From Thermodesulfobacteriota bacterium (lineage in GTDB: Bacteria > Desulfobacterota > RBG-13-43-22): DNA of 64,000 nt. Position numbers and translations under genes: made by a program. Positions 20,057-40,440 of the stretch are shown piece after piece. Numbering within the stretch: position 1 is the stretch's first letter; the number at the start of each line of letters is the position of its first letter. The notes beneath the pieces are model-generated. The model was not told where the DNA came from. It did not search any database and saw only the letters and a list, made by a program, of their open reading frames with translations. Location of the stretch: positions 24,632-88,631 of the forward strand of contig JBEKPQ010000003.1 of assembly GCA_049520575.1 (NCBI GenBank). The letters run 5' to 3'.

Positions 20057-20124
20057 GAATTTTTTCTCTTTCCGACAGGATTAACAGGATCCAAAAAAAT
20101 TCTGTAAATCCTGTCTAAATCGGG

Positions 20125-22066: not shown

Positions 22067-23575
22067 ATGGACCTCTTAAAACAGAATAAAATCCTTCTCG
22101 TCCACCCCCTGGGTTACAAGATGGAAAGGGCGGGAAAGGATGTTTCGCGGATAGCTAATATCATGCCCCCGCTGGGCCTGGCTAGCATGGCCGCCTATCT
22201 GAATAAAAAAAATATCGAGGCTGATATCGTTGACTGTTTTGCCAAGCCCTTTTCCGATCGTTTCATCAGGGATTATCTGGGTAAGGAAAAGCCCTCTTTT
22301 ATCGGTCTCAGTTGCACCACCTCGAGCTTCCTCGATGGGGTCCGCATTGCCGAAATGGCAAAAAATACCCTGCCGGGCATAAAGACGGTTTTTGGGGGCC
22401 CCCATGTCTCCGCCCTGAAAACCAAGGTCCTGGCCGATTTCCCGGAAGTGGACTTTGTCGTGGCCGGTGAAGGGGAAGAGACCCTGGCCGAACTTCTGGC
22501 CTGCGACGGAAAGATCAATGAGACGCCCCCGGTCCCCGGTATGGTCTATCGCGATAAAAATGGAATCCCGCACTTTAGCGGCTATCGGGCAAAAGGCATC
22601 GATCTCGACACCCTTCCCTTTCCAGCCTATGAAAAACTTGATGGTTATCCTCAGGCCTACAAACTGCCCATTTTCAACTATCCGACGGTCCCCAATACCA
22701 GCTGTATATCGAGCCGCGGATGCCCTTATGCCTGCAGTTACTGCGACCGGTCGGTTTTTGGGAGCAGTTTCCGTTACAATTCCGCTGAATATCTCTATGA
22801 GCACCTGAAATACCTCCATGACCGTTTTCATATCCGGCACATCAATTTCTATGACGACCAGTTCACCTTCAACCGCAAAAGGATTGAAGCCTTCACTCGG
22901 ATGATGATCGACAAACCCCTCGGGATGACCTTTAACTGTGCCGTGCGGGCCGAACATATCGATCTCGATCTGGCCAGGATGATGAAAGAAGCCGGATGCT
23001 GGATGATCAGCCTCGGTGTGGAGACCGGCGATGAAGACCTCCTGGCCCAACACCGGAAAAACCCAGACCTGAAGATGCTGGCAGAAAAGATCCGGCTGAT
23101 CCATAAAACCAGAATCCGCGTCAAGGGACTGCTCATGCTGGGTCTGCCCGGCGAAACCGACTCGAGCATCCAAAAGAGTATGGATTATGTTTTTTCCTTA
23201 CCCATCGACGATATCAATGTGTCCAAATTCACCCCCTTCCCGGGCACACCCCTCTATGAAAAGGCCCATGAACTGGGGACCTTTGAAGAAGACTGGGAAA
23301 GGATGGACTGCATGCATTTCCTCTTCATCCCCAAGGGGATGACTGGAGAGCATCTGGAAAAACTTTTCGTGAGGTTCTATCGGAAACACTTTATGCGGCC
23401 TAAGATGTTCCTCGGTTATATCGCCATGATTTGGCGTTCTCCCGACAGTTGGAAGAGGTTCCTAACCGATTTCAGAGGTTTTTTCCGGTTTGTCCGGACC
23501 GACACAAGGATTGCAGGTCCGGGAACGGAGCCGAAGGTATCGGGAAAAAAGGCTGCTTCTTTATTGGAAAAATAA
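22067..23575 (+). CDS. B12-binding radical SAM protein (class B rSAM).
   Basis: N-terminal Rossmann-like cobalamin-binding region (ILLVHPLGY...LGLASMAAYL...GLSCTTSSF). rSAM motif CPYACSYC (CX3CX2C). Confidence 0.85.
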   Translation: MDLLKQNKILLVHPLGYKMERAGKDVSRIANIMPPLGLASMAAYLNKKNIEADIVDCFAKPFSDRFIRDYLGKEKPSFIGLSCTTSSFLDGVRIAEMAKNTLPGIKTVFGGPHVSALKTKVLADFPEVDFVVAGEGEETLAELLACDGKINETPPVPGMVYRDKNGIPHFSGYRAKGIDLDTLPFPAYEKLDGYPQAYKLPIFNYPTVPNTSCISSRGCPYACSYCDRSVFGSSFRYNSAEYLYEHLKYLHDRFHIRHINFYDDQFTFNRKRIEAFTRMMIDKPLGMTFNCAVRAEHIDLDLARMMKEAGCWMISLGVETGDEDLLAQHRKNPDLKMLAEKIRLIHKTRIRVKGLLMLGLPGETDSSIQKSMDYVFSLPIDDINVSKFTPFPGTPLYEKAHELGTFEEDWERMDCMHFLFIPKGMTGEHLEKLFVRFYRKHFMRPKMFLGYIAMIWRSPDSWKRFLTDFRGFFRFVRTDTRIAGPGTEPKVSGKKAASLLEK

Positions 23576-23632
23576 CTCTTGGCCGACTCCCCTGAAGAAA
23601 CGTCTTTGCTCCCCAATATCAGAAAAGATACG

Positions 23633-24814
23633 ATGAATGGATCAGAAAGCATGAAGATAAGGCCCCTGATGGTTATCCCCGTTTACAATCACGCCGGAAC
23701 ACTGCGGGATGTGGTTGTCCGAACGCTCAGTGTCTGTAGTGATGTGCTGGTTCTGGATGACGGCAGCACCGACGGAAGCGCAGAAGTTATCAAAGGCCTT
23801 CCCATCCATCTGGTTCGGCATGAGAAAAATAGGGGCAAAGGGGCGGCGATCCTTACAGCGGCCAAGGAAGCCGGAAGGCTCGGGATGACCCATATGATTA
23901 CCCTGGATGCCGATGGGAAGCACGACCCGACCGATTTTTCCAGATTCCTTCCTGTGATTCAGGAAAATCCCCTGGCGATTGTAGTGGGGAAAAGAATCTT
24001 AAAAAACACGAAGATTCCCTTCTCGTCCCGGTTTTATAGACACTTCTCCAACTTCTGGTTCAGGGTTCAAACCGGCAGTTCCCTGAAAGACACCCAATGC
24101 GGCTTTCGGGCCTACCCGGTTGCTGTCTTAACCTGGTTGGAGCTCCACGAAAAAGGCTATTCCTTTGAAGAGGAAGTCCTGGTAAAGGCCGCCTGGGCGG
24201 GAATTCCATTCAAAGAGGTGGAGGTTTCGATAGTCTATCTACCCCCCGGCGAACGCATATCTCATTTCCGCTTTTTCAGGGATACCCTCGCCCGGGCGCT
24301 ACTTAACACGCGTCTGACGATCTGGGCCATTGCTCCCATACCGTCGAGACAATTTATGCCCTTTGAAAACGAACCGGAAAAGATAACCATCCGCCACCCC
24401 TTGCAGTCTTTGAGAATTCTTCTCAGGAGAAAAATCTCACAGTCGCAATTAGCGATTTCAGCCGGTTTTGGGGTGCTTCTCGGTACCCTCCCACTGATCG
24501 GTTTTTGGACTCTGACTATCCTCATTACAGCCAGTTATTTCCGCCTCAACAAATATGTGGCCCTGGTTGCCAGCCAACTGTGTTATCACCCTGTTGTGCC
24601 GGCCCTCTGTATCGAAGCAGGGTATTATATTCGTCACGGGAAGTTCCTCACGGAGATTTCCCTGAACACCCTCGGATATCAGGCCTTGGAAAGGATCTAC
24701 GAGTGGATCATCGGCAGCCTGGTCCTCGGGCCTCTTTTTGGAGTTTTTTTCGGCTGCCTGATCTATGTGATCACCTTTTCCCTAAAAAAGGAGAAGTCCG
24801 TTATTAATGCTTAA
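23633..24814 (+). CDS. Family 2 glycosyltransferase (DPM1-like) fused to a C-terminal DUF2062-like membrane domain. The start is probably the ATG at 23633; the ORF track begins at a TTG at 23579.
   Basis: GT2 motifs VIPVYNH...LDDGSTDGS...TLDADGKHDP. Hydrophobic C-terminal third. Confidence 0.7.
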   Translation: MNGSESMKIRPLMVIPVYNHAGTLRDVVVRTLSVCSDVLVLDDGSTDGSAEVIKGLPIHLVRHEKNRGKGAAILTAAKEAGRLGMTHMITLDADGKHDPTDFSRFLPVIQENPLAIVVGKRILKNTKIPFSSRFYRHFSNFWFRVQTGSSLKDTQCGFRAYPVAVLTWLELHEKGYSFEEEVLVKAAWAGIPFKEVEVSIVYLPPGERISHFRFFRDTLARALLNTRLTIWAIAPIPSRQFMPFENEPEKITIRHPLQSLRILLRRKISQSQLAISAGFGVLLGTLPLIGFWTLTILITASYFRLNKYVALVASQLCYHPVVPALCIEAGYYIRHGKFLTEISLNTLGYQALERIYEWIIGSLVLGPLFGVFFGCLIYVITFSLKKEKSVINA

Positions 24815-24913
24815 AGAAACACGGGCCGTTCAGAAACATCCGGACAGAGACAGCCATAACATCGGCTTAAGCCGGGGACACAAAATCTTCTGTTAGCCGG
24901 AGCGGAGGAATAA

Positions 24914-25492
24914 ATGGGAAACTTAATACTGTTGGTCCTATTGACCTATCTGGCCGCCTCGGTCAACTTTTCCATACTTTTATTTAAGATCCTCGGTAAA
25001 GGTGACCCAAGAAGTCATTTCAGCGGCAATGCCGGAACGGCGAACGTCACCAGACAACTGGGCAAACTCTGGGGCCTGCTGATCCTCCTGCTCGACATCG
25101 GACGGGCCGTAGCCTTTGCCCAAATCGGAGTTTGGTTTCTGCCTGCTCCCTTAGTGCCTTTATTAGGTCTGGCCCTCGTGGTTGGGAACCAAAAGCCATT
25201 GTTTCACGGGTTCCGAGGCGGAAAGGGGGTAGCCGGCTACCTGGGTTTCACCGCTTTGATCTCCCCCCTTGCAGCCGGAATATCTTGCCTGGTTTGGGTC
25301 CTGGTGTACGGGTTTTTCCGGGTGACCTTCATCGGATCGTTTTTTATGATTACGGTTCTGGGCCTGGGGACCGTGATGCATTACGCTTGGGCATGGTCGG
25401 TGGTTACCGCTGCTGGTTTGACCATGGTTTTAATCTTCCTGGCCCATAAATCCAACATTGCGGGTATCCTTGGTCAGCGCAGAAAAGGTTGA
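24914..25492 (+). CDS. PlsY-family acyl-phosphate:glycerol-3-phosphate acyltransferase.
   Basis: 192 aa polytopic protein carrying the PlsY signatures SGNAGTAN and FRGGKGVAG. Preceded by a GGAGG RBS. Confidence 0.7.
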   Translation: MGNLILLVLLTYLAASVNFSILLFKILGKGDPRSHFSGNAGTANVTRQLGKLWGLLILLLDIGRAVAFAQIGVWFLPAPLVPLLGLALVVGNQKPLFHGFRGGKGVAGYLGFTALISPLAAGISCLVWVLVYGFFRVTFIGSFFMITVLGLGTVMHYAWAWSVVTAAGLTMVLIFLAHKSNIAGILGQRRKG

Positions 25493-25524
25493 CCTCGCCC
25501 ATCGTCTATGATACTTTTTTTTGC

Positions 25525-26784
25525 ATGAAATTTAAATTGATCTATCCAAAATGGAAGAAGCTTAAGGGCCAGACCGAATTCCATCTTCCCCCTCACGGCC
25601 CCGTGGTCTTTGCCGCCACAATACCCAAAGAGGTGGAAATCGAATTCGTCGATGAAAATCTGGAAACCATCGATTTCAATGATTCAGCGGATTTGGTCGG
25701 GATCTCCATGATGCTGACCAGCCAGGTGAAAAGGGGCTGGGAAATTGCCGATGAATACCGGAAAAGGGGTATCCCGGTCATCTGCGGCGGCATTGCCGCC
25801 ATGCTTCATTCCGAAGAGACTTCCCAACACGGCGACGCCGTCTTCTTGGGGGAGGCGGAAGGAAGGATGGAACAGGTCTTTGATGATTTCCGGAATAACC
25901 GGCTTCGAAAGGTCTATGACTACTTGATGGATTTTCCTCCCATCGCTTCGGTCGGTACGGCCCGGCGGGATATCCTGAAGCGGGAGCTTTACAACTACAA
26001 AGGCCTCCAGATGGTCGACCTTTTTCATGCCTCGCGGGGATGCCGATTTAACTGCTATCCCTGCTGTGTCAGCTTCCTTGGAGGACGACAGTTCCGGCCC
26101 CGCCCCATGGACAAGGTCGTGGAGGAACTGGCAGCCATAGAAAACAACCGCCTCTTTATTGTTGACAATTCACTAGCCCAAGACAAAGCCTGGGAAAAGC
26201 AGCTCTTCCGGGAGATGATTCCTTTAAAAAAGAAATGGTGCTCCCACCCCATTGAAGACGATGATGAGGTCCTCAATCTGGCGGCCCAGGCCGGGGCCTG
26301 GTATGTTTATCAGGCGATCTTCGATACCTCGGACTTCATCCGCAACCGGATCAAACGTTACCACGATTTCGGTATCGGTGTCGAGGGAACCATCCTCCTG
26401 GGACTCGACCACCATACGGAGGACTATATACGCCGTCTGTTCGAATTCCTCCAGGAGGTCGAATTGGACCTGGCGGAATTTACCGTCCTGACTCCTTTCC
26501 CCCACACGCCAGCCTTCACTGACCTGCAACGGGAAGGGCGGATTCTATCCTACGATTGGAACGACTATACCTGCGACAAGGTCGTCTTCCAGCCCAAACA
26601 CATGAGTCCGGAACGCCTTCAGGAATTATACGACCAGTCGTGGGAAACCTTCTACCGTGAAAAACCCCAGTCCTACCGGATGTTCGAACTGTTCAAACGG
26701 GTCATTGCTAAGGAAATGGCTGACGGGACCTTCCGGCGTTGGCAGCCCAAGGTCAAACGGAAATTCGGCCGGGTGGGGATATAA
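25525..26784 (+). CDS. B12-binding radical SAM protein, second copy. Probable start MKFKLIYP at 25525.
   Basis: Cobalamin-binding N-domain (DLVGISMM...VICGG) plus rSAM CRFNCYPC (CX3CX2C). Confidence 0.8.
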   Translation: MKFKLIYPKWKKLKGQTEFHLPPHGPVVFAATIPKEVEIEFVDENLETIDFNDSADLVGISMMLTSQVKRGWEIADEYRKRGIPVICGGIAAMLHSEETSQHGDAVFLGEAEGRMEQVFDDFRNNRLRKVYDYLMDFPPIASVGTARRDILKRELYNYKGLQMVDLFHASRGCRFNCYPCCVSFLGGRQFRPRPMDKVVEELAAIENNRLFIVDNSLAQDKAWEKQLFREMIPLKKKWCSHPIEDDDEVLNLAAQAGAWYVYQAIFDTSDFIRNRIKRYHDFGIGVEGTILLGLDHHTEDYIRRLFEFLQEVELDLAEFTVLTPFPHTPAFTDLQREGRILSYDWNDYTCDKVVFQPKHMSPERLQELYDQSWETFYREKPQSYRMFELFKRVIAKEMADGTFRRWQPKVKRKFGRVGI

Positions 26785-26832
26785 GGCCCTCGCCCATTCC
26801 CAGGTTTTAAAGATGTTTGGTTCCCTTTTAAT

Positions 26833-27696
26833 TCACAACTCCTTAATCCATAGAAGAGGATGGAGGCGGCCCTGGGATATATCCTGCATTTGAATACCCC
26901 GGATTTCCTCACAGACAGCCCCTTGGTCATCGATAATCCAGGCATTAAAAAAAAACTGATTCTTTTCTACTCCCGTCGGAAAAACCCGGCCGGTATATAA
27001 ACCATTTTTTTTGGTTTTCTGATGAATGATCCTTTTTTCAATACCTGTTGGAAATAGGACATACTCAGTAAACCGTTGCCCCCAGATGCAAGCCACCTGA
27101 AGGGCGGCATCCAGAGGAAAGAGAGAACCGAGTCGATCATCCTCTTTTCCGCAGTCACCGCCGGAAAGATAGCCTGAAGCCTCTTCGGGCCAAAGAGAAA
27201 CCGGGCCGATGATATTTTGAAAAGCCTTCCCGAAAGGGATCAGTCCGGGGTAAACTAATTCTTTTGAAACCAAGATATCCGGTCCTTTAGGATTTTCTTT
27301 GTCCGCCAATAGCGGTGAAGCACCTGGAAAAGAATCGGCCTGAGAAAATTCCACCCGGGCATGCTCCAGGTTGCGGCTGATGCCACCGGTTTTTGATCTC
27401 ATCGAAGTCATCAGCCGTGTGGAAATACCCCCCTTGGGGGTTTGATCTATTTCGACGACAACCGGCAGATGGTGCATTTCCGGATGGATTATCAGAAAAC
27501 GGGGAAACCGGGCCTTGGTCAAACAAACCATATCCCAATTGGAAAAATGATCATGAACAACCTTGGCCAGGACATTCAAAGCCTCTGTAGCCGGCAAAAC
27601 ACACCGGCCTTCAAAGTGATGATCCAATAAATAGTCGCCGACTTCGATTTCCAGAGGACAGCGCATTTTTCCATTTAGCCGGGGAAGGATTTCCAA
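26833..27696 (-). CDS. Standalone polyketide-synthase-type dehydratase (PS-DH, double hot-dog). Start uncertain: the ORF overlaps the upstream thioesterase by 22 nt.
   Basis: PKS DH active-site signature LLDHHFEGRCVLPATE (HxxxGxxxxP); ~287 aa. Confidence 0.6.
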   Translation of the reverse strand: MEILPRLNGKMRCPLEIEVGDYLLDHHFEGRCVLPATEALNVLAKVVHDHFSNWDMVCLTKARFPRFLIIHPEMHHLPVVVEIDQTPKGGISTRLMTSMRSKTGGISRNLEHARVEFSQADSFPGASPLLADKENPKGPDILVSKELVYPGLIPFGKAFQNIIGPVSLWPEEASGYLSGGDCGKEDDRLGSLFPLDAALQVACIWGQRFTEYVLFPTGIEKRIIHQKTKKNGLYTGRVFPTGVEKNQFFFNAWIIDDQGAVCEEIRGIQMQDISQGRLHPLLWIKEL

Positions 27697-28160
27697 AGAG
27701 CAATCGTTTGGGGGTCTATGGCCACGGGAAGTCCCTTAGCATTCAGGGCGCAATGTTTGGTATATCCGATGCAAACGATCCGGTCGGTTTCCGCCTGGGT
27801 GATCAGGTAATCAAACTGCAAACGGACCCGTTCCAGGAGAGTCGGCCGGGTGTGGATCAGCATGACATCATCATAATACAAGGGAGAATAATATCCGATC
27901 CTTAAATCGATGATGGGATAAACAAAGCCGCTCGCTTCAATTTCTTTATAGGGATAGCCGAAGTCGCGCATCAAAGAGGTTCGCCCGAATTCAAAAAACC
28001 GCAAGTAATTGGCATGATAAACCACCGCTGAACGGTCCGTATCGGCATATAACGTTCTATAGGTGGAGCGATGCCAGATCAAACCAGTGGAGCGGTCGCG
28101 GATGAAGTTGGGATTGTTATTGAAAGGTTCGGGTCGGAAAGGTTTGGGACGCATCTTCAC
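27675..28160 (-). CDS. 4HBT-fold acyl-CoA/acyl-ACP thioesterase (YbgC-like).
   Basis: YADTDRSAVVYHANYLRFFEFGRTSL matches the 4HBT thioesterase consensus. ATGA overlap with the KS stop indicates translational coupling. Confidence 0.7.
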   Translation of the reverse strand: MKMRPKPFRPEPFNNNPNFIRDRSTGLIWHRSTYRTLYADTDRSAVVYHANYLRFFEFGRTSLMRDFGYPYKEIEASGFVYPIIDLRIGYYSPLYYDDVMLIHTRPTLLERVRLQFDYLITQAETDRIVCIGYTKHCALNAKGLPVAIDPQTIALWKSFPG

Positions 28161-29422
28161 ACCCCCTTGAAAATGATACAGCAGTTCGTCCCTCCAAACC
28201 CAAAGGCATTGGAAAGGGCCAATTCATAATGATGCCGACGGACTTCGTTGGGCACCACATCGATATCCGAAAATTCTGGATCAGGAAGATGATTGATGGT
28301 CGGCAATATACACCCTCTTCCCATGGCTTCGATGGTCAAGGCCGCTTCAATAGCTGCGGTGGCCCCCAAGGTGTGGCCCAATTGGGACTTATTGGAGGAT
28401 ATGGGGATTTTTTCCATGGCCTTGCCGAACACTTCGCGCAGACATTTTATCTCCGTCCGGTCCCCTTTGGGCGTAGACGTACCGTGGGCATTAATATATT
28501 GGATATCTCTCGGTTCCAAGCCTGCATCCTCAATGGTTTCTCTGATGGCCCGGACAATGGTGACGGGGTTGGGACTGGTGTAATGATAAGCGTCCGATGT
28601 CCAGCCCACACCCAAGACCTCGGCCCGGGCTTTGAGACCATAAGCCTTAATGACTTCTTCCGCCGCCAGAACCACTGCGCCCGCTCCTTCGGAAAGGACA
28701 AACCCTTTACGGTCAACACTGAAAGGGCGGGAGGCCTGGGCCGGATCCGTAAAGGCCCTATCTTTTGGGTGGACCTTGATCGTGGCATTCATATTGGCAA
28801 AGCCGTGAATCAATTCCGGAAGGATAGGGGCATCGGCCCCGCCGGCCAACACGAAATCGCAATCCCCGTCCCGGATCATTCTGGCCCCTATGCCGATGGC
28901 GTGGTTCCCCGAGGCGCAGGCCCCTTGGGGGGAAAAGATGGGACCGGTGAATTTTAGGAGCATGCCGGCCTTACCACCAGGTACATTGGCGCATAGATTG
29001 GGCAGCAGATAAGGGCTTACCCGGAGAGGTCCCCGTTGTTCCAGGTCCTGCATGGCAATTCGAAAGGCCTCCGGCCCATTTAAGGCGGAACCGATCAGGC
29101 AGGCCATTCGTGGGGAAATCTGTTCATCCATGGTAATCCCGGCGTTTTGCAGGGCTTCCTGACAGACAGCCATGGTCATGATTACAAAACCGGCGTTCCA
29201 GTTGTACACTTCTTTGGCATCGATATAATCCAGCTCCAAGGGATTCCAGTCCGGGATTTCTCCGACAATGTTGCAGGCCGATTCCACCTGACACCGGGTC
29301 ACCTTCCGGAACCCGGCTTCCCCTTTAACAGCCCGCTTCCAGGTCTTCTCAAAGGTGCTGCCCAGGGGTGTGGCCATCCCGTAACCGACAACAAACACTC
29401 TTCTGTTTTTAGGTGCCTTCAT
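28157..29422 (-). CDS. Beta-ketoacyl-ACP synthase (FabB/FabF-like KS).
   Basis: Active-site Cys in GACASGNHA; His motifs NAHGTSTPKGD and GHTLGATAAIE. Confidence 0.9.
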   Translation of the reverse strand: MKAPKNRRVFVVGYGMATPLGSTFEKTWKRAVKGEAGFRKVTRCQVESACNIVGEIPDWNPLELDYIDAKEVYNWNAGFVIMTMAVCQEALQNAGITMDEQISPRMACLIGSALNGPEAFRIAMQDLEQRGPLRVSPYLLPNLCANVPGGKAGMLLKFTGPIFSPQGACASGNHAIGIGARMIRDGDCDFVLAGGADAPILPELIHGFANMNATIKVHPKDRAFTDPAQASRPFSVDRKGFVLSEGAGAVVLAAEEVIKAYGLKARAEVLGVGWTSDAYHYTSPNPVTIVRAIRETIEDAGLEPRDIQYINAHGTSTPKGDRTEIKCLREVFGKAMEKIPISSNKSQLGHTLGATAAIEAALTIEAMGRGCILPTINHLPDPEFSDIDVVPNEVRRHHYELALSNAFGFGGTNCCIIFKGV

Positions 29423-29494
29423 GGTTCAGTGCACATCCTTTATGACTTTACCAGTTTCAACTATCCGGTGCGAGGATATTTATTCTGGCTTCAA

Positions 29495-30745
29495 TTATAT
29501 CAGCCTGCGTAAAACCAGACAGGCATTGCACCCGCCAAAGCCCAGTGCATTTTTCAAGACAAATTCTCCGCTTAATTTTCTGGCTCCCTCGGCCACACAG
29601 TCCAATTCAACATCCGGATCAGGGAGATAATTAATCGTAGGAAGCAAGGTCTCTTTGAGCAAACCTTCCATGGTGAAAATGGCCTCGATGGCGCTGGAAG
29701 CCCCCATGGCATGGCCCATTTGGGATTTATTGGCCGATACCGGAGGAAGTCGCTTTCCGAAGATATTATGCAGGGCATCAACCTCCACCTTGTCCCCTAC
29801 CTTGGTTGAAGTGGCGTGGGCGTTAATGGCATCGATATCCGAAGGTTTAATCCCGGCCTGGGCAATAGCCAGCTCCATAGACCTTTGAACCGTTTCCAGA
29901 TTGGGGGCAACGAAGTGCTTGGCATCCGAGGTCATTCCAAACCCGGCCAATTCAATGGGCGCTTTAAGTCCATGGGCGGCGGCGAATTCCGCTGAGGCAA
30001 TGATAATACAGGCGGCCCCTTCGGAAACCACGAACCCCCTGCGATTTAAGGAAAAAGGCCGGCTGGTTTTTTCGGGCGGTTCAGGCGGCTGGCCTTCTTT
30101 GGGATGATAAGCGCCGTTCATGGTGGCAAAGCCGGCAACAATCGGTTCAACCAAGGGAAAGTCAACCGCTCCTCCGATGACCACATCAGCCAGACCCTGA
30201 CGCAGGAGCATTGCCCCTGTAATCAATGAGGTGATGCCCGTTGCGCAAGCTGTGATGGTGGAAAAGATGGGTCCGGTGGCCCCGGTGAAAACAGAGACCC
30301 GTCCACCGACCATATTGATGCATGAGTTGGGGTTGGTAAAGGGATGGGGCATTTTCCCTTGGGAGACCATCAGCCGGTCCGCCTCCAACACGGCATCCAG
30401 CCCGCCGATAGCGCTGCTGAAGGTGACGGCCACGCGGGGGGCGATCTCGGGTGTAATCACCAAACCGCTTTTTTGCAGTGCGCGGTGGACGACCAGCAGG
30501 GCGTGGGGGAAAATAGGGGAAGTCCAATGAGCCATTTCCCGGGGCTGCAAAAAAGGAAAAGGTCTGGTATCAAGGGGCGGAACTTCTCCGGCCACTCTAA
30601 CCGGAAAATCGTGGGGCAAGGGAAAACGGGTTAAGGGACCTATCCCCGAGTCCCCGCGAACCGCCTTTTCCCACTGGGTTTCCCATTCCGTACCTAAAGG
30701 GGAAACGGCATCATACCCTAAAATGACTGCTTTTTTTGGTTCCAT
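29495..30745 (-). CDS. Beta-ketoacyl-ACP synthase, second copy with the catalytic Cys retained. Probable start MEPKKAVILGYD.
   Basis: TACATG active-site Cys; NAHATSTKVGD and GHAMGASSAIEA His motifs. Confidence 0.85.
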   Translation of the reverse strand: MEPKKAVILGYDAVSPLGTEWETQWEKAVRGDSGIGPLTRFPLPHDFPVRVAGEVPPLDTRPFPFLQPREMAHWTSPIFPHALLVVHRALQKSGLVITPEIAPRVAVTFSSAIGGLDAVLEADRLMVSQGKMPHPFTNPNSCINMVGGRVSVFTGATGPIFSTITACATGITSLITGAMLLRQGLADVVIGGAVDFPLVEPIVAGFATMNGAYHPKEGQPPEPPEKTSRPFSLNRRGFVVSEGAACIIIASAEFAAAHGLKAPIELAGFGMTSDAKHFVAPNLETVQRSMELAIAQAGIKPSDIDAINAHATSTKVGDKVEVDALHNIFGKRLPPVSANKSQMGHAMGASSAIEAIFTMEGLLKETLLPTINYLPDPDVELDCVAEGARKLSGEFVLKNALGFGGCNACLVLRRLI

Positions 30746-30921
30746 AAAGAGTACCCAGATTAAAAAAACCATTTGAAGAGAGAAAAATCTTTAAATTTAT
30801 GCTCTCGGGATCACCTAATGTTGAGGAGACCAGGACAGCGCTTTTTCTCTTTTCGATTGAATCGATGATGAGATCGGATTTGAATGCCGGAAAAAGCAAA
30901 CTACCGAAGTCCCACCCATAA

Positions 30922-31920
30922 TCACCAGGGGATGAAATGATACAGCTTGGCGAACATTTCATAAACTTCGATCCAGTTCTGCAAATCTTCAGTCGACCGA
31001 ATATGTTCTCTTTTATTGACCATAACCCAGCTCATATGGGCCGCCCCGTCCTTGCAGGTGGAGCAGTCCCGGCTGGCCGAAGTGCAACAGCGGTGGACCG
31101 TCTTTAAATCGGAAGCCCAGCGGATAAAATGAATCAAACGGTGGGGCTGGGGATTCCTATCGTCCAAGGATTCGGTTACAGAGGGACATTCTTTCCAGCC
31201 GAAAGGACGGCCCATCATGGTCCCTGTGGTGATGATTTGATGGTAATATTTGCTGGAAATAACCGTTTGAGGATACCGGTCCAGCATTTCATCTAGTTCG
31301 TGACGCAAGGCCGTTAGCTCTTTTTCCCGCCAGGAAAAACCTTCCACATGCTCGTCGTTTGACAAAAGCTGAAGATGGACCTTCAATCCAATATCGGCGA
31401 TTCTTTTGATGACCGGTTCAATTTTACCCACCTGCCGCGGTGTGATGGTGTACAGATAATAAGTGTAGGGGTCACCGGTATAATGCTTACTGGAAATCGC
31501 AAAGGTGTCTCTCCCCCTTAGAACCTTTTCATCTTCAGGGCTGCCCCAGAGAGAAATCCCGACCATCATATCAGGGAACCGATCCCGGGGCACTTTTATC
31601 AAGCCGTTGGTGGCGCAATAGGTCGGCAGCCGATGATAAAAGGCCTCAGCCCTGTCCAGGAAAAGCGTCGGCTCTCCGCCGATCAATATGGCCAGATTGA
31701 CGCCCCGCTCCTTTTCCCGGTCAATAAAGGCCTCCCACTTTTTTAGATCCATTTCTTCACGGGCCGCCTGGTGTTCGTTGGAGGAAAAGAAAAAACACCC
31801 CTTACAGCGCAAATTGCATTGGTTGGTAACATCATAGATAGAACTGCGAATATTTAATTTGGAAATCCTCCGATAGCGTTCGTACCAGGATGAATCTAAT
31901 AATGAACTGACAGTTTTCAT
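30922..31920 (-). CDS. Radical SAM protein with a SPASM/twitch-like C-terminal Cys cluster. Probable start MKTVSS at 31920; the longer ORF-track form would overlap the upstream paralogue by 100 nt.
   Basis: CNLRCKGC (CX3CX2C), GGEPTL, C-terminal CCTSASRDCSTC. Paralogous to the adjacent gene. Confidence 0.7.
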   Translation of the reverse strand: MKTVSSLLDSSWYERYRRISKLNIRSSIYDVTNQCNLRCKGCFFFSSNEHQAAREEMDLKKWEAFIDREKERGVNLAILIGGEPTLFLDRAEAFYHRLPTYCATNGLIKVPRDRFPDMMVGISLWGSPEDEKVLRGRDTFAISSKHYTGDPYTYYLYTITPRQVGKIEPVIKRIADIGLKVHLQLLSNDEHVEGFSWREKELTALRHELDEMLDRYPQTVISSKYYHQIITTGTMMGRPFGWKECPSVTESLDDRNPQPHRLIHFIRWASDLKTVHRCCTSASRDCSTCKDGAAHMSWVMVNKREHIRSTEDLQNWIEVYEMFAKLYHFIPW

Positions 31921-31973
31921 AAAGTCGTCCCTTAAAATCTTCTTTTTGGTTTTCTGATTTTTCGGTCCGGGGT

Positions 31974-33044
31974 TCAGGTCATCGGGGGGCTGACCGGGGC
32001 CGGACAGAGATTCTCCCCTTTGGGATACCCCATCACCCACACCGCCAGGTACGTATCCACATAATCCAGCCAAGCCTTGAAGGTGTCCAATTGACCGGCA
32101 TGACGAAAAAGACGGGCGGTGACCACAGCTGAACCTGAGGCATAATGCCGGCAGTCGTTACAATCGGTATCCGGCACACAGCAGGCCACCGACCGGTCCC
32201 ATTTTAAATCCGTTCGGTACTGTCGAAAGGACCGTCCCAGGCCAATGTCCTGAGAGGGGTTTTGTCGAGGGTACTGGCAGGCAAAAAGGTCATGCAAACT
32301 GCCGCGGTGGGTATGGGCAACGGCATTATAGGCCGAGAACAAAACCTGCTGAGGATATTTCTCCAGGAGGGCGATCATATTGTTTCTGGTTTGTTCCAGT
32401 GAATCTTCATTATGGCGTAAAGGTCCCTTATAGCCCACCGGGGAGGAAAAAACATTGAAGGTCAACTTACAATCCTCGGCCACGAGGCGTTCGGCCACCT
32501 CCCAGACCTCTCCGATATTGCTCCGGGTGAAGGTATAAACAAAAACGGCCCGCGGGTCATTCCGATAGTTTTCGATTTGTTTTTTTAAAAGATCCTTGGC
32601 TTTCCGCACCCGAAGGCTGGTTTCATCGTTGCCCCAGACGGAAATATGGATTTTATAGCCGACCGATTCCGAAATTTTTTTCAATCCGTTGGTGGCTATG
32701 CTGCCCAGCGGCATTTCCTGAAAACAAACCTCCAACAGTTCCGGAACGAGCGAGGGTTCGGCCCCGGCCAGAACCACATAGGTGATCCCCCGTTTTTTTT
32801 CGGTTTGCATCAGTTCCCGCCAGGCTTCGACCTGATTGTTTTCAACGGCAAATTGTTTTTCCCCCTCATAATAATAACAGCCGTCGCAGCGGAGATTGCA
32901 GCGATTGCTCATGTCATAGGTGGATTCCCGCAGGAAAAAATATTTTCGGACTTTCTCCCACCGCTGTCTGACTTCCGGATGGTCAAGCAGTTCGGAAAAT
33001 TTCGGTTGGTCTGGTTCCAAGGATGGCTGATGATTCATGGTCAT
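31974..33044 (-). CDS. Radical SAM protein with a SPASM/twitch-like C-terminal Cys cluster; paralogue of the previous gene.
   Basis: CNLRCDGC (CX3CX2C), AGAEPSL, C-terminal CCVPDTDCNDC. Confidence 0.75.
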   Translation of the reverse strand: MTMNHQPSLEPDQPKFSELLDHPEVRQRWEKVRKYFFLRESTYDMSNRCNLRCDGCYYYEGEKQFAVENNQVEAWRELMQTEKKRGITYVVLAGAEPSLVPELLEVCFQEMPLGSIATNGLKKISESVGYKIHISVWGNDETSLRVRKAKDLLKKQIENYRNDPRAVFVYTFTRSNIGEVWEVAERLVAEDCKLTFNVFSSPVGYKGPLRHNEDSLEQTRNNMIALLEKYPQQVLFSAYNAVAHTHRGSLHDLFACQYPRQNPSQDIGLGRSFRQYRTDLKWDRSVACCVPDTDCNDCRHYASGSAVVTARLFRHAGQLDTFKAWLDYVDTYLAVWVMGYPKGENLCPAPVSPPMT

Positions 33045-33102: not shown

Positions 33103-33378
33103 TTAACTCCGGGCCTTAACTCTTTCCTCAACATATTCGGCGATCAAGCGAATGGTCTTCAATTTGGGATAATCGTCTTCGTCAATTACAATCTTGTATT
33201 CATCCTGTAAAACCAGAGAGATAGTGGCCAGATCCATACTATCAATTCCCAGTTCATCGATCAGGTCCAAATCAGGATTGAACGTCTCAACCGTTACATC
33301 TTCCAGTTTGAGTTCAAAAATTATTTTTTGGGCTACATTTTCAATAATGCCCTTAATTTCTCCCTTTTCAGGCATCAT
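33103..33378 (-). CDS. Acyl carrier protein.
   Basis: 91 aa; phosphopantetheine attachment motif LGIDSMD. Confidence 0.8.
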   Translation of the reverse strand: MMPEKGEIKGIIENVAQKIIFELKLEDVTVETFNPDLDLIDELGIDSMDLATISLVLQDEYKIVIDEDDYPKLKTIRLIAEYVEERVKARS

Positions 33379-33430
33379 TATCCTCCCTTTTTTATTAGTT
33401 TTCTGATTGGCTTTCCTTAAAGTAAAAGGA

Positions 33431-33466
33431 ATTATAAAATAAAAAGTAAACCGGGGTCAAGGGAAA
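33431..33466 (-). promoter_or_regulatory. Promoter E of the conserved family, on the minus strand. It reads TTTTCCCTTGACCCCGG (-35 at 33455-33460), 18 nt spacer, TATAAT (33431-33436). Drives the ACP-rSAM-rSAM-KS-KS-TE-DH operon.
   Basis: Reverse complement read by hand. The CCTTGACCCCGG block is identical to promoter D. Confidence 0.55.
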
Positions 33467-33489
33467 ATTAGTATATTGTTTGTTCTATA

Positions 33490-33518
33490 TTGACATTACC
33501 CATAGTTATAGATAGAAT
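33490..33518 (+). promoter_or_regulatory. Sigma70-like promoter TTGACA-17-TAGAAT for the dehydratase/ketoreductase operon.
   Basis: Hexamers with a 17 nt spacer about 75 nt upstream of the ATG at 33594. Confidence 0.45.
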
Positions 33519-33593
33519 TTTTCATCTTGATAAAAAGTTTCTCCAAAAGAAAAGATCTTATATTTTAAAACAGATAGTTTGGAAATAGGAAGT

Positions 33594-33986
33594 ATGCCTA
33601 CCCCCCCCGATGATTGGTTGCCTCTGGAGAAACAACGGATCACCCCTGAAGGCCGATGGGAATCGAGGGTGCGATTCGGACCCCAATCGAAGTGGTTCTC
33701 GGGGCATTTTGAAACATTCCCCTTGTTACCCGGCGTGGCCCTCCTCGCCTTGGCTTCTGAAACGCTACAAAGGCAAGCCTTTGAAAATGGTCGGCTTCTC
33801 GATGTGTTAGGCTTTTCCAGAGTAAGATTTAGGCATCTGGTTCTCCCGGGGGATGAACTGTGCATTTCTGTAGCAGCCATGCCCAGCGGTCCTGAGGCTA
33901 AACTCGATTTTCAGATAACCTGTCAGGCCAAACTCGTTGCCCATGGTTTTTTGAAGGCCCGAGAAGAAGGTCCTTTTGAACACTGA
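33594..33986 (+). CDS. FabZ/FabA-like hot-dog dehydratase with its catalytic His (ApeP-like). Start at the ATG 33594, preceded by an AGGAAG RBS.
   Basis: Motif FSGHFETFPLLPGVALLALASE matches the FabZ hFxGHFPxxPvmPGVLxxE signature. Confidence 0.75.
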   Translation: MPTPPDDWLPLEKQRITPEGRWESRVRFGPQSKWFSGHFETFPLLPGVALLALASETLQRQAFENGRLLDVLGFSRVRFRHLVLPGDELCISVAAMPSGPEAKLDFQITCQAKLVAHGFLKAREEGPFEH

Positions 33987-34011
33987 TGACTGATTCGATG
34001 GGATAAAAAAA

Positions 34012-34476
34012 ATGGAACGGAATGAATTATTTCCTGCTGAACCTCTGATCCCGCACCGTCATCTTATGAGACTCTTGGAATGGGTAAGACGACCGATCGA
34101 GAAAACCCTGCAGGCAGAAACTACCGTAAACGCCAATTGGCCTCTTCACCGGGACGGGATGGTGAATGCCGTGATATGTATCGAACTGGTCGCCCAGGCC
34201 ATCGCTGCCTTGAGAACCTGGAATAAAGGAAAAGGAGCCGAATCGCGACTTGGATTCGTAGTCGGTCTTAAAAAAGCTGAATTTTCTACCTCCAGCATTC
34301 CTGTGGGGACGAGGCTTGTTATCCATATTGCCGAGACCTATCATGTTGAAAAATATGCCGTGTATGAAGGTCAGGTCAACTCTGGGTCGGATTTCAACTT
34401 TAAAACCACAATCCAGGTCATGGAGCCGGAGGAGGAAGCCCTTTCCGAAAAAACTTTGCTGGACGGGCCGGGGTAG
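34012..34476 (+). CDS. Hot-dog-fold dehydratase partner subunit lacking the FabZ His motif (ApeI-like).
   Basis: 154 aa with hot-dog-like secondary-structure pattern. Adjacent to and co-oriented with the FabZ-like gene, as in heterodimeric dehydratase pairs. Confidence 0.5.
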   Translation: MERNELFPAEPLIPHRHLMRLLEWVRRPIEKTLQAETTVNANWPLHRDGMVNAVICIELVAQAIAALRTWNKGKGAESRLGFVVGLKKAEFSTSSIPVGTRLVIHIAETYHVEKYAVYEGQVNSGSDFNFKTTIQVMEPEEEALSEKTLLDGPG

Positions 34477-34597
34477 GGCAATGAGTTACCTTTTAAACAA
34501 GCCCCAAAAAAGATCCCCCAGTCCAATGTTAGGTAAGTCCATCCATTTCAGGTCAAGATTATTATAAACCCTTAATAACTTGTGGAGAAAAAAAAAC

Positions 34598-35335
34598 ATG
34601 GACCCTTTATCGCCCATGAAGGTTGCCCTGGTAACGGGCGGAAGTCGGGGAATCGGACGGGCTATCTGTTTGGAACTGGCAAAAAACGGCTTATATGTGA
34701 TAATCAATTTTCTTTCTAACCAAAAGGCGGCGGAAGAGACCTTGAGATTGATTCAGGAAGTTGGAGGAAGGGGCGAGACGGTCTGTTTTGACGTAGCGGA
34801 TCAAGAAGTAACGGAGAAAAGCCTTGAAGCCCTTTTAATCCGTCATGAAGGCATTGATATTTTAGTCAATAATGCCGGAGTAGCGGCAGACGGCCTTTTT
34901 TTGCTCCTGTCTAAAGAGGAATGGACCCGGGTTCTTAACACATCGTTACAAGGATTTTATAATGTCACTCAGCCTGTCCTTAAAAAGATGGTCACCAGGA
35001 ACCAAGGGGTGATTGTGATCATCTCCTCCGTTTCTGCCAGGCTCGGCCACCGCGGTCAGACCAACTATTCGGCAGCCAAGGCCGGTCTTGAAGGGGCTTG
35101 TCGATCCCTGGCCTCGGAGGTCGCCCGTCTCGGTATTCGGGTCAACATAGTAGCCCCAGGCATGATCGAAACCGAGATGATTCAAGCCATGCCCAAGGCG
35201 ATGATAAAACAGATCATCCCCATGGGTCGGGTTGGACTCCCGGAAGAGGTGGCCAAAGTTGTCCGATTCCTCTGTTCCGATGATGCCTCCTATATTACCG
35301 GTCAAGTCATCTCCGTCAATGGGGGAATGATTTAG
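34598..35335 (+). CDS. 3-oxoacyl-ACP reductase (FabG-like SDR). Start at the ATG 34598.
   Basis: TGGSRGIG Rossmann motif, NNAG, and catalytic S...Y...K (YSAAKAG). Confidence 0.85.
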   Translation: MDPLSPMKVALVTGGSRGIGRAICLELAKNGLYVIINFLSNQKAAEETLRLIQEVGGRGETVCFDVADQEVTEKSLEALLIRHEGIDILVNNAGVAADGLFLLLSKEEWTRVLNTSLQGFYNVTQPVLKKMVTRNQGVIVIISSVSARLGHRGQTNYSAAKAGLEGACRSLASEVARLGIRVNIVAPGMIETEMIQAMPKAMIKQIIPMGRVGLPEEVAKVVRFLCSDDASYITGQVISVNGGMI

Positions 35336-35558: not shown

Positions 35559-35825
35559 ATGGATACCATTATGACACGGGAAGAGATAAAGAGTGAAATA
35601 TTAAAAATTCTATTCAGAGAATTTGAAATCGAAAATCCCGACTTGGATGATGATTTAAGAGAGAAGTATGAGTTCGACAGTATCGACGCCATAGAACTTC
35701 TGGTAGCGATTGAACATTTATTAAAAACAGAGCTGACTCAGGAAGAAAAAAAACAGGCCATGGATATTAGGACCATTAACCATATTTGTGATTATGTGGA
35801 AGCTTTGGCTAAAGCCAGGGCCTGA
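35559..35825 (+). CDS. Acyl carrier protein.
   Basis: 88 aa; FDSIDAIEL phosphopantetheinylation motif. Confidence 0.8.
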   Translation: MDTIMTREEIKSEILKILFREFEIENPDLDDDLREKYEFDSIDAIELLVAIEHLLKTELTQEEKKQAMDIRTINHICDYVEALAKARA

Positions 35826-39949: not shown

Positions 39950-40165
39950 TTGATAAAACGAATTGAATTTAGTATAAGAAAAAATATCGATAACCCCTTG
40001 AATCCTATTTTCATAGTAATAAAAAATCCTCGGCTAAAAAACCGATGGATGAATGGGACGGCTCATCTTTTTATAGACCATGAGCTGGACAGCATTGATG
40101 CTTTGGATTGGTTCGCTGCGAATGATAGATTGGCCTTTTTCAGCAACCTGTTAAGGGAAAAATGA
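39950..40165 (+). CDS. Possible short ACP-like protein (71 aa), translationally coupled to the downstream ACP by an ATGA overlap. AT-rich.
   Basis: Contains LDSIDALD, resembling an ACP Ser-attachment motif. Its C-terminus overlaps a 23 nt sequence repeated at 4513-4535, which lowers confidence. Confidence 0.3.
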   Translation: MIKRIEFSIRKNIDNPLNPIFIVIKNPRLKNRWMNGTAHLFIDHELDSIDALDWFAANDRLAFFSNLLREK

Positions 40166-40440
40166 TGAATCAACTCCTGCAAGAACTAAAACGAAAAATC
40201 GTGGAAGAGCTCCAGCTCGAAGATGTGAATCCGGATGAACTGGCCGATGACACCCCCTTCTTTGATGGAGGTCTGGGTCTGGCTTCCGTGGATCTATTGG
40301 TCCTGGTGGTCCTGGTGGAAAGAGATTATGGGGTTGAGATCTTCAGTAAGGAGTTAGGCGAGAAGGTCTTTATAACCATTTCCTCTCTGGCTGAATATAT
40401 TAAAGACAACCGGAAAAAAAGGGAGAAGGGCCAGATTTGA
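40162..40440 (+). CDS. Acyl carrier protein (ApeE/F-like).
   Basis: 92 aa; GLGLASVDLL phosphopantetheine site. Confidence 0.7.
   Translation: MMNQLLQELKRKIVEELQLEDVNPDELADDTPFFDGGLGLASVDLLVLVVLVERDYGVEIFSKELGEKVFITISSLAEYIKDNRKKREKGQI

Follow-up and report, generated by a model that had tools for sequence, protein, structure and literature searches.

Introduction

Bacterial gene clusters that combine type II fatty-acid synthesis (FASII) genes with radical S-adenosylmethionine (SAM) enzymes have been noted, and left unexplained, since the work of Rattray and colleagues in 2009 (PMC2649909). Here we describe one of these ladderane-like or aryl-polyene-like lipid clusters, which is a variant and not a new kind. 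It carries four radical SAM genes between positions 22,067 and 33,044 of a 64,000-nucleotide stretch of a Thermodesulfobacteriota genome (GenBank assembly GCA_049520575.1, contig JBEKPQ010000003.1, positions 24,632 to 88,631 of the forward strand). We call this whole stretch the window, and the positions given below refer to it.

Rattray and colleagues described FASII clusters of the anaerobic ammonium-oxidizing (anammox) bacterium Kuenenia with radical SAM, phytoene-desaturase-like, acyl-ligase and glycosyltransferase (GT) genes, and found striking synteny in Desulfotalea, Geobacter and Pelobacter (PMC2649909). The Kuenenia genes were listed again by Javidpour and colleagues in 2016 (PMC4790861). 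These clusters hold a GT, a phytoene desaturase, FabZ, acyl carrier proteins (ACPs), FabG, two adjacent radical SAM enzymes, a ligase and several FabF proteins, with two B12-binding radical SAM enzymes encoded elsewhere (PMC4790861, PMC2649909). In addition, antiSMASH reports 'ladderane' biosynthetic gene clusters (BGCs), of unknown function, in non-anammox phyla that include the Desulfobacterota and Myxococcota (PMC9902471). No enzyme of a ladderane cluster has been tied to a product, and progress is blocked because anammox bacteria can neither be grown in pure culture nor be manipulated genetically (PMC10139942, PMC9821293).

The window resembles the anammox and deltaproteobacterial clusters (Kuenenia kuste3335-3352, kuste3603-3608 and kuste2802-2805; Desulfotalea DP1853/DP1855; those of Geobacter and Pelobacter) in its FabF-like ketosynthases (KSs), ACPs, FabZ-like dehydratases (DHs), FabG, phytoene-desaturase-like flavoenzyme, ligase, GT, two adjacent non-B12 radical SAM enzymes and B12-binding radical SAM enzymes. 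It differs in several ways. It has no member of the TIGR04072 family ('rSAM_ladder_B12') and no KS with a dead catalytic triad. It adds FakA/DegV, PlsY-like, PlsC-like and LpxL-like genes, an explicit Fak-PlsY-PlsC installation set, and it uses the B12A/B12B enzyme pair of an aryl-polyene-like module.

We consider it moderately probable that this is a composite, dedicated lipid-biosynthesis cluster of two modules, in which a pair of small radical SAM enzymes acts on an ACP-tethered chain and the product is installed in a glycerolipid. The cluster adds to a problem that was already recognised and defines it more closely, with the chemistry of the small pair as an attractive, testable question.

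Four radical SAM genes in a lipid cluster

The interval 22,067-33,044 holds ten genes in two convergent sets. Four are on the plus strand (B12A, GT2-DUF2062, a PlsY-like gene and B12B) and six on the minus strand (a dehydratase, a 4HBT thioesterase, two FabF-like KSs and two small radical SAM enzymes, rS1 and rS2). The lipid cluster extends past 33,044, up to approximately 46.2 kb. The genes as far as the first ACP are as follows; bit scores are given with the model, and with its cut-off where one was compared.

22067..23575, plus strand: B12A, class-B (cobalamin-binding) radical SAM enzyme of 502 amino acids (Pfam B12-binding 86.8 bits, cut-off 32.1; Radical_SAM 81.8 bits; CPYACSYC)
23579..24814, plus strand: GT2 glycosyltransferase with a C-terminal DUF2062 membrane domain (Pfam Glycos_transf_2 76.3 bits, DUF2062 40.1 bits)
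24914..25492, plus strand: PlsY-like acyl-phosphate:glycerol-3-phosphate acyltransferase (Pfam G3P_acyltransf 109.5 bits; NCBIfam PlsY 89.4 against 137.2 bits)
25525..26784, plus strand: B12B, probable cobalamin-binding radical SAM enzyme (weak Pfam matches, B12-binding 29.8 bits and Radical_SAM 22.1 bits; CRFNCYPC)
26833..27696, minus strand: PS-DH, double hot-dog dehydratase of the polyketide synthase type (Pfam PS-DH 27.1 bits; HxxxGxxxxP read from the translation as DHHFEGRCVLP)
27675..28160, minus strand: TE1, YbgC/4HBT hot-dog thioesterase (TIGR00051 80.9 bits, above the 68.7 cut-off)
28157..29422, minus strand: KS1, FabF-like ketosynthase (Pfam; intact Cys-His-His triad C169, H313, H350)
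29495..30772, minus strand: KS2, FabF-like ketosynthase (Pfam; intact Cys-His-His triad C176, H319, H354)
30922..31920, minus strand: rS2, small radical SAM enzyme of 332 amino acids (Pfam Radical_SAM 30.5 bits; CNLRCKGCFFF; C-terminal CCx6CxxC)
31974..33044, minus strand: rS1, small radical SAM enzyme of 356 amino acids (Pfam Radical_SAM 32.9 bits; CNLRCDGCYYY; C-terminal CCx5CxxC)
33103..33378, minus strand: ACP1, dedicated ACP that heads the core operon (Pfam PP-binding 33.7 bits; DSMD serine motif)

A sequence-only reading of this DNA had proposed four radical SAM genes beside KS, ACP and DH genes, with the two B12-type genes flanking the GT2 and PlsY-like genes. This layout stands, and thioesterase (TE) genes are found there too. 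The four open reading frames (ORFs), at 22067-23575(+), 25489-26784(+), 30922-32073(-) and 31974-33044(-), are real radical SAM genes. Each has a Pfam Radical_SAM (PF04055) match and a CxxxCxxC motif (CPYACSYC, CRFNCYPC, CNLRCKGC and CNLRCDGC, respectively), although the Pfam match exceeds the gathering threshold for B12A, rS1 and rS2 and lies below it for B12B (22.1 against 29.5 bits). Two starts probably differ from those of the ORFs. The B12B ORF opens at 25489 (431 amino acids) and its probable start is M13 (25525), because its homologues measure 417-420 amino acids. The rS2 ORF as called is 383 amino acids long and its probable start is M52 (31920), because its relatives measure 332 amino acids.

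A conserved core with a dedicated acyl carrier protein

The minus-strand genes from 26.8 to 33.4 kb form the first module, which reads ACP1-rS1-rS2-KS2-KS1-TE1-PS-DH. We compared the window proteins by tblastn with 80 loci (one genome per species) and several metagenome loci. The genome scan that supplied the 80 kept loci was restricted to one peptide pattern. The counts that follow refer to those 57 loci that have an orthologue of rS1, set at 57% identity or more, and they are minimum counts, as many contigs end early.

The partners of rS1 are strongly conserved. An adjacent rS2 is found in 55 loci and an ACP1 adjacent to rS1 in 54, followed by KS2 (46), KS1 (42), TE1 (39) and PS-DH (36); in 24 loci a PlsY-like gene follows the module. 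rS2 is 58-96% identical in its 55 loci, across metagenome-assembled genomes (MAGs) labelled as several phyla, and its identity stays at 72-80% in the loci of Desulfocapsa and of MAGs with a Myxococcales or Spirochaetes label. Carriers of the core include Syntrophales, Desulfocapsa and MAGs labelled Myxococcota and Spirochaetota/Leptospirales. Because of these synteny counts, the grouping of radical SAM with fatty-acid genes is not chance.

The synteny has thereby already largely refuted the idea that the radical SAM enzymes are coincidental neighbours with housekeeping roles, e.g. in cofactor or protein maturation. The small pair keeps its ACP and KS genes across the 57 loci, in MAGs labelled as several phyla, and orthologues of B12A and B12B lie in lipid-type clusters at every locus examined (L085-L089). 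What speaks for coincidence is a weak N-terminal similarity to the MoaA, NirJ, PqqE and anSME-type families, and the fact that the B12 block is missing at this site from the closest relative (L002). The similarity comes with family scores far below all cut-offs, and we regard this explanation as extremely improbable. The sequence-only reading had itself asked whether all four enzymes cluster with cofactor-maturation families; none of the four does, every NCBIfam score being far below the curated cut-off.

The host is a Syntrophales bacterium, because the MAGs with the nearest homologues belong to Smithella, Smithellaceae, Syntrophaceae and Syntrophus. A Danish MAG contains the nearest locus, L002, whose rS1 is 96% identical. 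An anammox origin was rejected, given homologues in Smithella, Syntrophaceae and Syntrophus. As to a possible orthology of rS1/rS2 with Kuenenia kuste3342/3343, there is no anammox genome among the 80 kept loci of the one-pattern scan, and cluster look-ups of 20 distant representatives gave no anammox names.

In about half of the 57 loci the core is preceded by small FabZ-like, polysaccharide-deacetylase-like and B12 radical SAM genes. The B12 enzyme of L001 (6664-8013) scores 400.6 bits for TIGR04072, above the cut-off of 360, and is a bona fide member. In some loci additional ACP and KS genes and a phytoene-desaturase-like gene are found upstream of the core, in an arrangement that looks like the anammox 'Cluster I' kuste3603-3608 (bioRxiv 10.64898/2026.05.19.726425).

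Could the window then encode a ladderane or ladderane precursor, made by the anammox route? A TIGR04072 gene lies just upstream of the core in many relatives, as in L001, and the composition of the window parallels the Kuenenia clusters (PMC4790861, PMC2649909). The analogy, which the sequence-only reading also drew, is apt, but it had already been published for deltaproteobacteria (PMC2649909), and the window has neither a TIGR04072 member nor a dead-triad KS. Its two B12 genes fail TIGR04072 (94 and 41 against 360 bits). Unlike amxFabFmut (bioRxiv 10.64898/2026.05.19.726425), all three of its KSs retain both histidines of the triad along with a candidate for the active-site Cys. In anammox Cluster I the KS/chain-length-factor (CLF)-like pair amxFabF2/amxFabFmut includes one member without a triad (bioRxiv 10.64898/2026.05.19.726425), whereas KS1 and KS2 are both intact, and KS2 is nearer to canonical FabF (270 bits) than to the chains of 9s5h (141-151 bits). 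With a Syntrophales host, no anammox genome among the scanned loci and no ladderanes in Desulfotalea (PMC2649909), we think a ladderane product very unlikely.

Some loci vary the core. L006 and L009 are both from MAG MFD02416.bin.2.107, so that one bin holds two copies of ACP1-rS1-rS2, which share 85% and 82% identity with the window. The small pair of L006 is followed by a B12B-like gene (26%) and a ligase-like gene in place of KS2-KS1-TE-DH. In L033, L037, L042 and L055 (MAGs labelled Myxococcales or Deltaproteobacteria), rS1-rS2 is directly followed by a GT2 gene, not by the KS pair. These GT2 proteins are 40-43% identical to the GT2-DUF2062 of the window, and LpxL-like and ACP genes are found farther on.

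The small radical SAM pair

The two small enzymes are adjacent paralogues that share CNLRCxGC followed by FFF or YYY, as had been noted from the sequence; they align end to end with 26% identity (E=2e-33). Across 33-36 diverse members of the rS1 family, C49, C53, C56, C288, C295 and C298 are invariant and C289 is nearly so. The first three are the SAM-cluster cysteines and the last three invariant ones form a C-terminal Cx6CxxC. All invariant cysteines and the GxE SAM motif are kept in both rS1 and rS2.

The label 'SPASM-type' that the pair had been given does not hold. Neither protein has a Pfam match to the SPASM domain (PF13186), even at E<=10. The seven-cysteine SPASM pattern (CX9-15GX4C ... 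CX2CX5CX3C ... C) is missing, and the C-terminus conserves only the Cx6CxxC with its adjacent Cys. For the curated families we used the NCBIfam cut-offs. Scores of rS1 and rS2 against PapB, ScmE, Tes, NirJ, MoaA and anSME are 15-37 bits and cover the N-terminal cluster region only. The equivalog cut-offs are 450 (Tes), 349 (anSME), 515 (NirJ) and 284 bits (MoaA), and neither protein belongs to the Tes, anSME, NirJ, MoaA or PqqE-type families, all scores being below cut-off.

An AlphaFold2 (AF2) model of rS1 has a predicted local distance difference test score (pLDDT) of 88, and its nearest folds are SkfB, anSME, viperin and BlsE. rS1 and rS2 have a core of the SPASM/twitch clade, with SkfB and anSME as nearest folds. 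The likeness to enzymes of this clade (SkfB, anSME, BlsE, MoaA and SuiB; Tes/GDGT-MAS) is partial, as approximately 220-250 of the 356 residues of rS1 align. They differ also in that the apparent substrate carrier of rS1/rS2 is an ACP, not a peptide, a sugar or a finished lipid.

This last point bears on a further explanation, that the radical SAM enzymes tailor the tails of finished membrane phospholipids in the style of Tes/GDGT-MAS, Mss or GrsA/B, by tail-to-tail coupling, ring formation or mid-chain methylation, while the fatty-acid synthesis (FAS) genes supply the substrate. Of all neighbours of the small pair, an ACP is the closest and the best conserved, and two KS genes come next. The Tes model gives 22-29 bits where 450 are required, and in neither rS1 nor rS2 did Pfam detect a membrane-related domain. 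To our knowledge, the genes for Tes and Mss are not embedded in FAS operons. We therefore consider tailoring after assembly unlikely.

The family has few members: 480 related representatives turned up among 1.84 billion in a full HMMER pass. Some remoter relatives also have an ACP connection: P0128, 41% identical to rS1, lies beside an ACP gene in a glycan cluster, and a P0273-type pair sits in a KS-KS-rSAM-rSAM-ACP-KS array, where rSAM denotes a radical SAM gene. The context of still remoter homologues was tried as a guide to the chemistry and gave no clue, those in Alphaproteobacteria being without a nearby ACP gene and the L061 homologue having transporters and DUFs as neighbours.

Two of these distant contexts are worth recording. 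In L082/L083 (10001-11255) P0128 overlaps the start of the ACP gene and is surrounded by sulfotransferases, GT47, GT61, WcbI and an epimerase; the pair adjoins IS21 and IS66 transposases, which places an ACP-coupled radical SAM gene in a non-FAS setting. In L075 (2492-8079, Planctomycetota MAG ARS63) three consecutive radical SAM genes, the last 29-35% identical to rS1/rS2, lie between two LplA/LipB-type lipoate/biotin-protein-ligase-like genes, an uncharacterised system in which the family is again paired with acyl-protein ligases.

The predicted B12-binding enzymes

Two cobalamin-dependent enzymes had been predicted. For B12A this is supported by a B12-binding match of 86.8 against 32.1 bits. 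The B12B match is itself below threshold (29.8 against 32.1 bits), yet its homologues, which are 74-94% identical and keep CRFxCYPC in 120 of 120 cases, carry a precomputed PF02310 annotation. Both enzymes are thus predicted, from this domain, to be of class B and to bind cobalamin. B12B scores at most 54 bits for any NCBIfam family (HpnJ 48.5, BchE 39.2, HpnR 30.6 and TIGR04072 41.2) and belongs to none of these four; its AF2 model (pLDDT 60.6) is too poor for use.

B12A is better placed. Its homologues are 67-93% identical across the Thermodesulfobacteriota. Its top curated match, across the full length, is HpnJ (199.5 bits, cut-off 577.6), followed by BchE (176.7, cut-off 481), TIGR04072 (94.3, cut-off 360) and HpnR (81.1, cut-off 650). 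It is below every cut-off and a member of none of these families; HpnP was not seen among the NCBIfam matches. The best curated relatives, HpnJ and BchE, are non-methylating class-B enzymes that match near full length, whereas B12A reaches only about one third of their cut-offs and is not an orthologue.

B12A is also closely coupled to the GT2-DUF2062 gene, whose product is nearest to the polyprenyl-phosphate glycosyltransferases PpgS, AglJ and ArnC, all below cut-off. The two genes are 3 bp apart in the window. GT2-DUF2062 directly follows B12A in L087 and L088, and two extra genes intervene in L089. Furthermore, P0529, an 873-amino-acid protein from the JGI metagenomes, is a natural fusion of B12A, GT2 and DUF2062. 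This 'Rosetta-stone' evidence indicates that the adjacent B12A and GT2-DUF2062 work together.

HpnI, HpnK and HpnJ act on the sugar head group of a lipid (PMC13459092). In that pathway HpnJ comes after a glycosyltransferase, HpnI, and a deacetylase, HpnK (PMC13459092), much as B12A is coupled or fused to GT2-DUF2062. Related loci likewise pair B12 radical SAM genes with a polysaccharide deacetylase, as in HpnK/HpnJ, although the window has no such deacetylase. Among the window ORFs examined, none was recognised as a hopanoid gene. With HpnJ as the best curated relative and the adjacency and fusion to GT2-DUF2062, the target of B12A may by analogy be a glycosyl head group and not the acyl chain. 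Mid-chain methylation, the role first suggested for class-B enzymes here, may also be what B12A does, but it is not the only option, and the evidence favours it no more strongly than it favours a reaction on the head group.

An aryl-polyene-like module

Beyond ACP1 the cluster continues on the other side of a divergent promoter region. The features up to 46.2 kb are the following.

33379..34011, no strand: divergent intergenic (promoter) region, 630 bp between ACP1 and the ApeP-like gene
34012..34476, plus strand: ApeP/FabZ-like hot-dog dehydratase (Pfam ApeP-like 22.7 bits, below the 27 cut-off; weak FabZ match)
34580..35335, plus strand: FabG 3-oxoacyl-ACP reductase, FlxB-like (NF004200 304.8 bits, above 273; flexirubin reductase FlxB 299.7 bits, below 340)
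35559..35825, plus strand: ACP2 (Pfam PP-binding 33.4 bits)
35829..37076, plus strand: KS3, PRK09116-type ketosynthase (NF006587 394 bits, below 470; best solved relatives 4ewg and 7f27)
37160..37927, plus strand: PlsC-type 1-acylglycerol-3-phosphate acyltransferase (Pfam Acyltransferase 74.6 bits; TIGR00530 73.8 bits, below 102.95)
38127..39614, plus strand: phytoene-desaturase-like flavin amine oxidase (Pfam Amino_oxidase 63 bits; CrtD and CrtI scores below cut-off)
40162..40440, plus strand: ACP3 (Pfam PP-binding 31.7 bits)
40482..42119, plus strand: FadD-like AMP-forming acyl ligase, probable loader of ACP3 (Pfam AMP-binding 299 bits; long-chain fatty-acid ligase models 447 bits, below cut-off)
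42126..43049, plus strand: LpxL/PIM-type lipid acyltransferase (Pfam Lip_A_acyltrans 50.2 bits)
43056..44810, plus strand: FakA(Dak2)-DegV fusion, fatty-acid kinase-like (Pfam Dak2, FakA-like_M and DegV; DegV model 143.6 bits, above 99.7)
44878..45576, minus strand: 4'-phosphopantetheinyl transferase (Pfam ACPS 49.6 bits)
45798..46244, plus strand: TE2, second 4HBT thioesterase (Pfam 4HBT 37.1 bits)

Both histidine motifs of KS3 were found by pattern, and its candidate active-site Cys (in STACTTS) was read by eye. The FakA equivalog score of the FakA-DegV fusion is 112 against a cut-off of 975.

These genes have counterparts around B12A and B12B elsewhere. B12B orthologues (L085 and L086) lie in arrays of the form ApeP-KR-LolA-x-B12B-4HBT-FakA/DegV-GT2 (KR, ketoreductase), so that a thioesterase like TE2 adjoins B12B and FakA/DegV in both; in one of the two, MMPL and LpxL-like genes are found farther on. 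The B12A orthologues that we examined (L087-L089) come from Syntrophorhabdaceae, Syntrophotaleaceae and one metagenome contig. In L087 and L088 the array is MMPL-ApeI-4HBT-KS-CLF-B12B-(third B12 rSAM)-B12A-GT2/DUF2062-LpxL-ACP-KS-KS, with LolA upstream in L087; L089 has no clear LpxL-like gene. LolA is thus found in three of the five clusters (L085-L087). The thioesterase, FakA/DegV, PlsY and PlsC genes recur together in relatives.

The three B12A loci have further features of their own. At approximately 5.2-9.5 kb, L087-L089 each have three consecutive B12-binding radical SAM genes, for a B12B-like, a 445-451-amino-acid and a B12A-like protein, with MMPL in the cluster. The middle protein is 33-40% identical to the TIGR04072 member. 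L089 also encodes, between B12A and GT2, a 590-amino-acid fusion of an alpha/beta-hydrolase, a radical SAM and a SPASM domain.

The content of this module raises the question of whether the whole locus makes an aryl-polyene (APE) or flexirubin-type pigment, i.e. an outer-membrane polyene lipid, with radical SAM enzymes that merely decorate it by methylating or desaturating the polyene or its starter. The window shares with such clusters ApeP/ApeI-like dehydratases, a FlxB-like ketoreductase (FabG), a PRK09116-type KS (KS3), 4HBT thioesterases, a ligase with an ACP, LpxL/PlsC-type acyltransferases and a GT2, here GT2-DUF2062. The orthologues of B12A and B12B also keep company with ApeI/ApeP-like dehydratases, MMPL and, in L085-L087, LolA, and no enoyl reductase is evident in the core. 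We nevertheless find a pigment improbable. LolA and MMPL, present in the related clusters, are absent from the window ORFs scanned, the ApeP-like match is below threshold, and the ligase is FadD-like, resembling fatty-acid and not aryl-acid ligases. The rS1/rS2 core also occurs without aryl-polyene-like genes, e.g. in L001 and L045. We know of no described APE cluster with radical SAM enzymes, FakA/DegV or PlsY, and found no literature characterising radical SAM-containing aryl-polyene-like clusters in the Desulfobacterota.

Two modules joined

The four radical SAM genes had been taken as one set in one cluster. They are not one unit: two modules, each conserved in its own right, are joined in the window as a mosaic. 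L002, at 93% DNA identity, is collinear with the window at 26.8-39.7 kb only. L003 and L005 have all four radical SAM genes, but lack the 33.4-40.15 kb block and the GT2. At least one B12 radical SAM gene is nearby in 32 of the 57 rS1-orthologue loci. A different two-plus-two set is found in L028 and L040 (Syntrophaceae), which combine a TIGR04072-like B12 enzyme (53-54% identical to that of L001) and a B12A-like gene with rS1 and rS2.

Promoter-like sites are found at operon starts, just upstream of B12A (22008-22036) and of ACP1. In the region between ACP1 and the ApeP-like gene they are strong and face both ways (33460-33431, minus strand; 33490-33518, plus strand; each 11/12). A 124-amino-acid ORF in this region (33506-33880) is probably not a gene, as it has no family match and its serine/arginine-rich translation is not protein-like. 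It was also rejected as the FabZ-like gene that precedes ACP1 in relatives, having no similarity to the FabZ-like protein of L001. That said, tblastn finds this ORF at 70-83% identity in L002 and L006-L010, and the DNA itself is therefore conserved.

Proposed pathway

How might these modules work? In the reading that we favour, KS1 and KS2 of module 1 would elongate an acyl chain on the private ACP1, and the hot-dog dehydratases would form enoyl intermediates. rS1 and rS2 would each carry the SAM-cleaving cluster and one auxiliary Cys motif, as in twitch-type enzymes. We place their action on the ACP1-tethered chain because an ACP is their most constant neighbour. They would abstract hydrogen from this chain, and the auxiliary cluster would oxidise the radical. 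Enzymes of the twitch/SPASM clade typically couple hydrogen abstraction to oxidation through an auxiliary cluster, so that the likeliest outcome would be either the closing of a new C-C bond, as a ring or a cross-link, or the introduction of a C=C bond. That the chemistry takes place on an ACP- or lipid-bound acyl chain, as the sequence-only reading had it, is a reasonable proposal, since the radical SAM genes are embedded in, and co-inherited with, an ACP/KS/DH/TE pathway.

There is a precedent for such a step. Jaw5 and C10P are radical SAM cyclopropanases that act on carrier-bound enoyl intermediates of jawsamycin-type polyketides, and they show that a growing, carrier-tethered ketoacyl chain can be modified by a radical SAM enzyme during elongation (PMC13459092). 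The rS1/rS2 pair differs in belonging to another radical SAM clade, and methylene transfer is not indicated for it. Jaw5 itself is a HemN-like enzyme, with a second SAM as its methylene donor.

Module 2, comprising B12A-GT2/DUF2062, B12B and the genes from the ApeP-like gene to TE2, would be an aryl-polyene-like assembly and anchoring system. The FadD-like ligase would load a carboxylic-acid starter on ACP3, for extension by KS3, FabG and the dehydratase. B12A would work with GT2-DUF2062, in head-group chemistry of the HpnI/HpnJ kind or in C-methylation, and B12B would provide an additional cobalamin-dependent step. For release and installation, TE1 or TE2 may free the acid, FakA/DegV convert it to an acyl-phosphate and the PlsY-like enzyme transfer it to glycerol-3-phosphate, after which the PlsC- and LpxL-like enzymes would complete the lipid. 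The supply of acyl-phosphate to PlsY by FakAB is established biochemistry. Direct observation covers the identities of the genes and their motifs, the class of fold, the synteny, the modularity and the fusion, and each substrate and chemical step named here is what we infer from them.

Several observations weigh against this scheme. The exact radical SAM quartet is found only in the window, L003 and L005 among the 57 loci, so the B12 enzymes are not constant partners of the core, and L002 is without the B12A-B12B block at this site. The scores of PlsY, FakA, PlsC, ApeP and KS3 are all below curated equivalog or gathering cut-offs, and the window ORFs scanned lack the LolA and MMPL of related aryl-polyene-like clusters. 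The C-terminal part of rS1 is the least confident of its model (pLDDT 53-85), therefore the reading of one auxiliary cluster rests mainly on the conserved cysteines. Remote rS1/rS2 homologues in Alphaproteobacteria (24-38% identical) have no ACP nearby. None of the clusters in this family has a known product, and Desulfotalea, which has a similar cluster, was found to make no ladderanes, only acyclic polyunsaturated hydrocarbons (PMC2649909).

A bolder idea, which we put forward only tentatively and hold to be doubtful, is that rS1/rS2 are a new ACP-dependent, twitch-like class that introduces a ring, a cross-link or an anaerobic desaturation into a growing non-isoprenoid acyl chain, and so makes an undetected class of lipids. 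If true, these lipids would be widespread in anaerobic Syntrophales, Desulfocapsaceae and MAGs labelled Myxococcota/Spirochaetota, and there would be a mechanistic link to the anammox ladderane clusters in culturable organisms. The core module occurs in lineages with cultured members, i.e. Syntrophus, Desulfocapsa and relatives of Desulfotalea. Its product would show what the 'ladderane-like' BGCs of anoxic metagenomes make, and could bring to light new radical reactions of fatty acyl chains bound to a carrier.

Surrounding sequence

An Rfam scan of the window found no cobalamin riboswitch or other RNA element, its sole match being a tRNA. Anaerobe housekeeping genes flank the cluster at 12158-21753. 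These encode an HpaB/4-hydroxybutyryl-CoA-dehydratase-family protein, tRNA-Asn, subunits of a 2-oxoacid:ferredoxin oxidoreductase and a hybrid-cluster protein. The hybrid-cluster protein gene adjoins B12A in L003 too, and so marks the left border of the cluster.

On the other side, at 56407-58506 (minus strand), a FabK-like gene of the NMO family (285 amino acids, 151 bits against a cut-off of 453) adjoins a gene for a 407-amino-acid protein with a C-terminal 2x[4Fe-4S] ferredoxin domain. The FabK-like gene could be the enoyl reductase of the cluster, or be unrelated to it.

Finally, GC content falls to 34% at 2001-4000, against approximately 50% elsewhere, with strong negative GC and AT skew. 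This stretch, a possible foreign insertion, covers a 552-amino-acid ORF (2080-3738, minus strand) with weak PilZ and methyltransferase matches. Nearby, at 7283-8221, is an AbiTii gene of the abortive-infection type.

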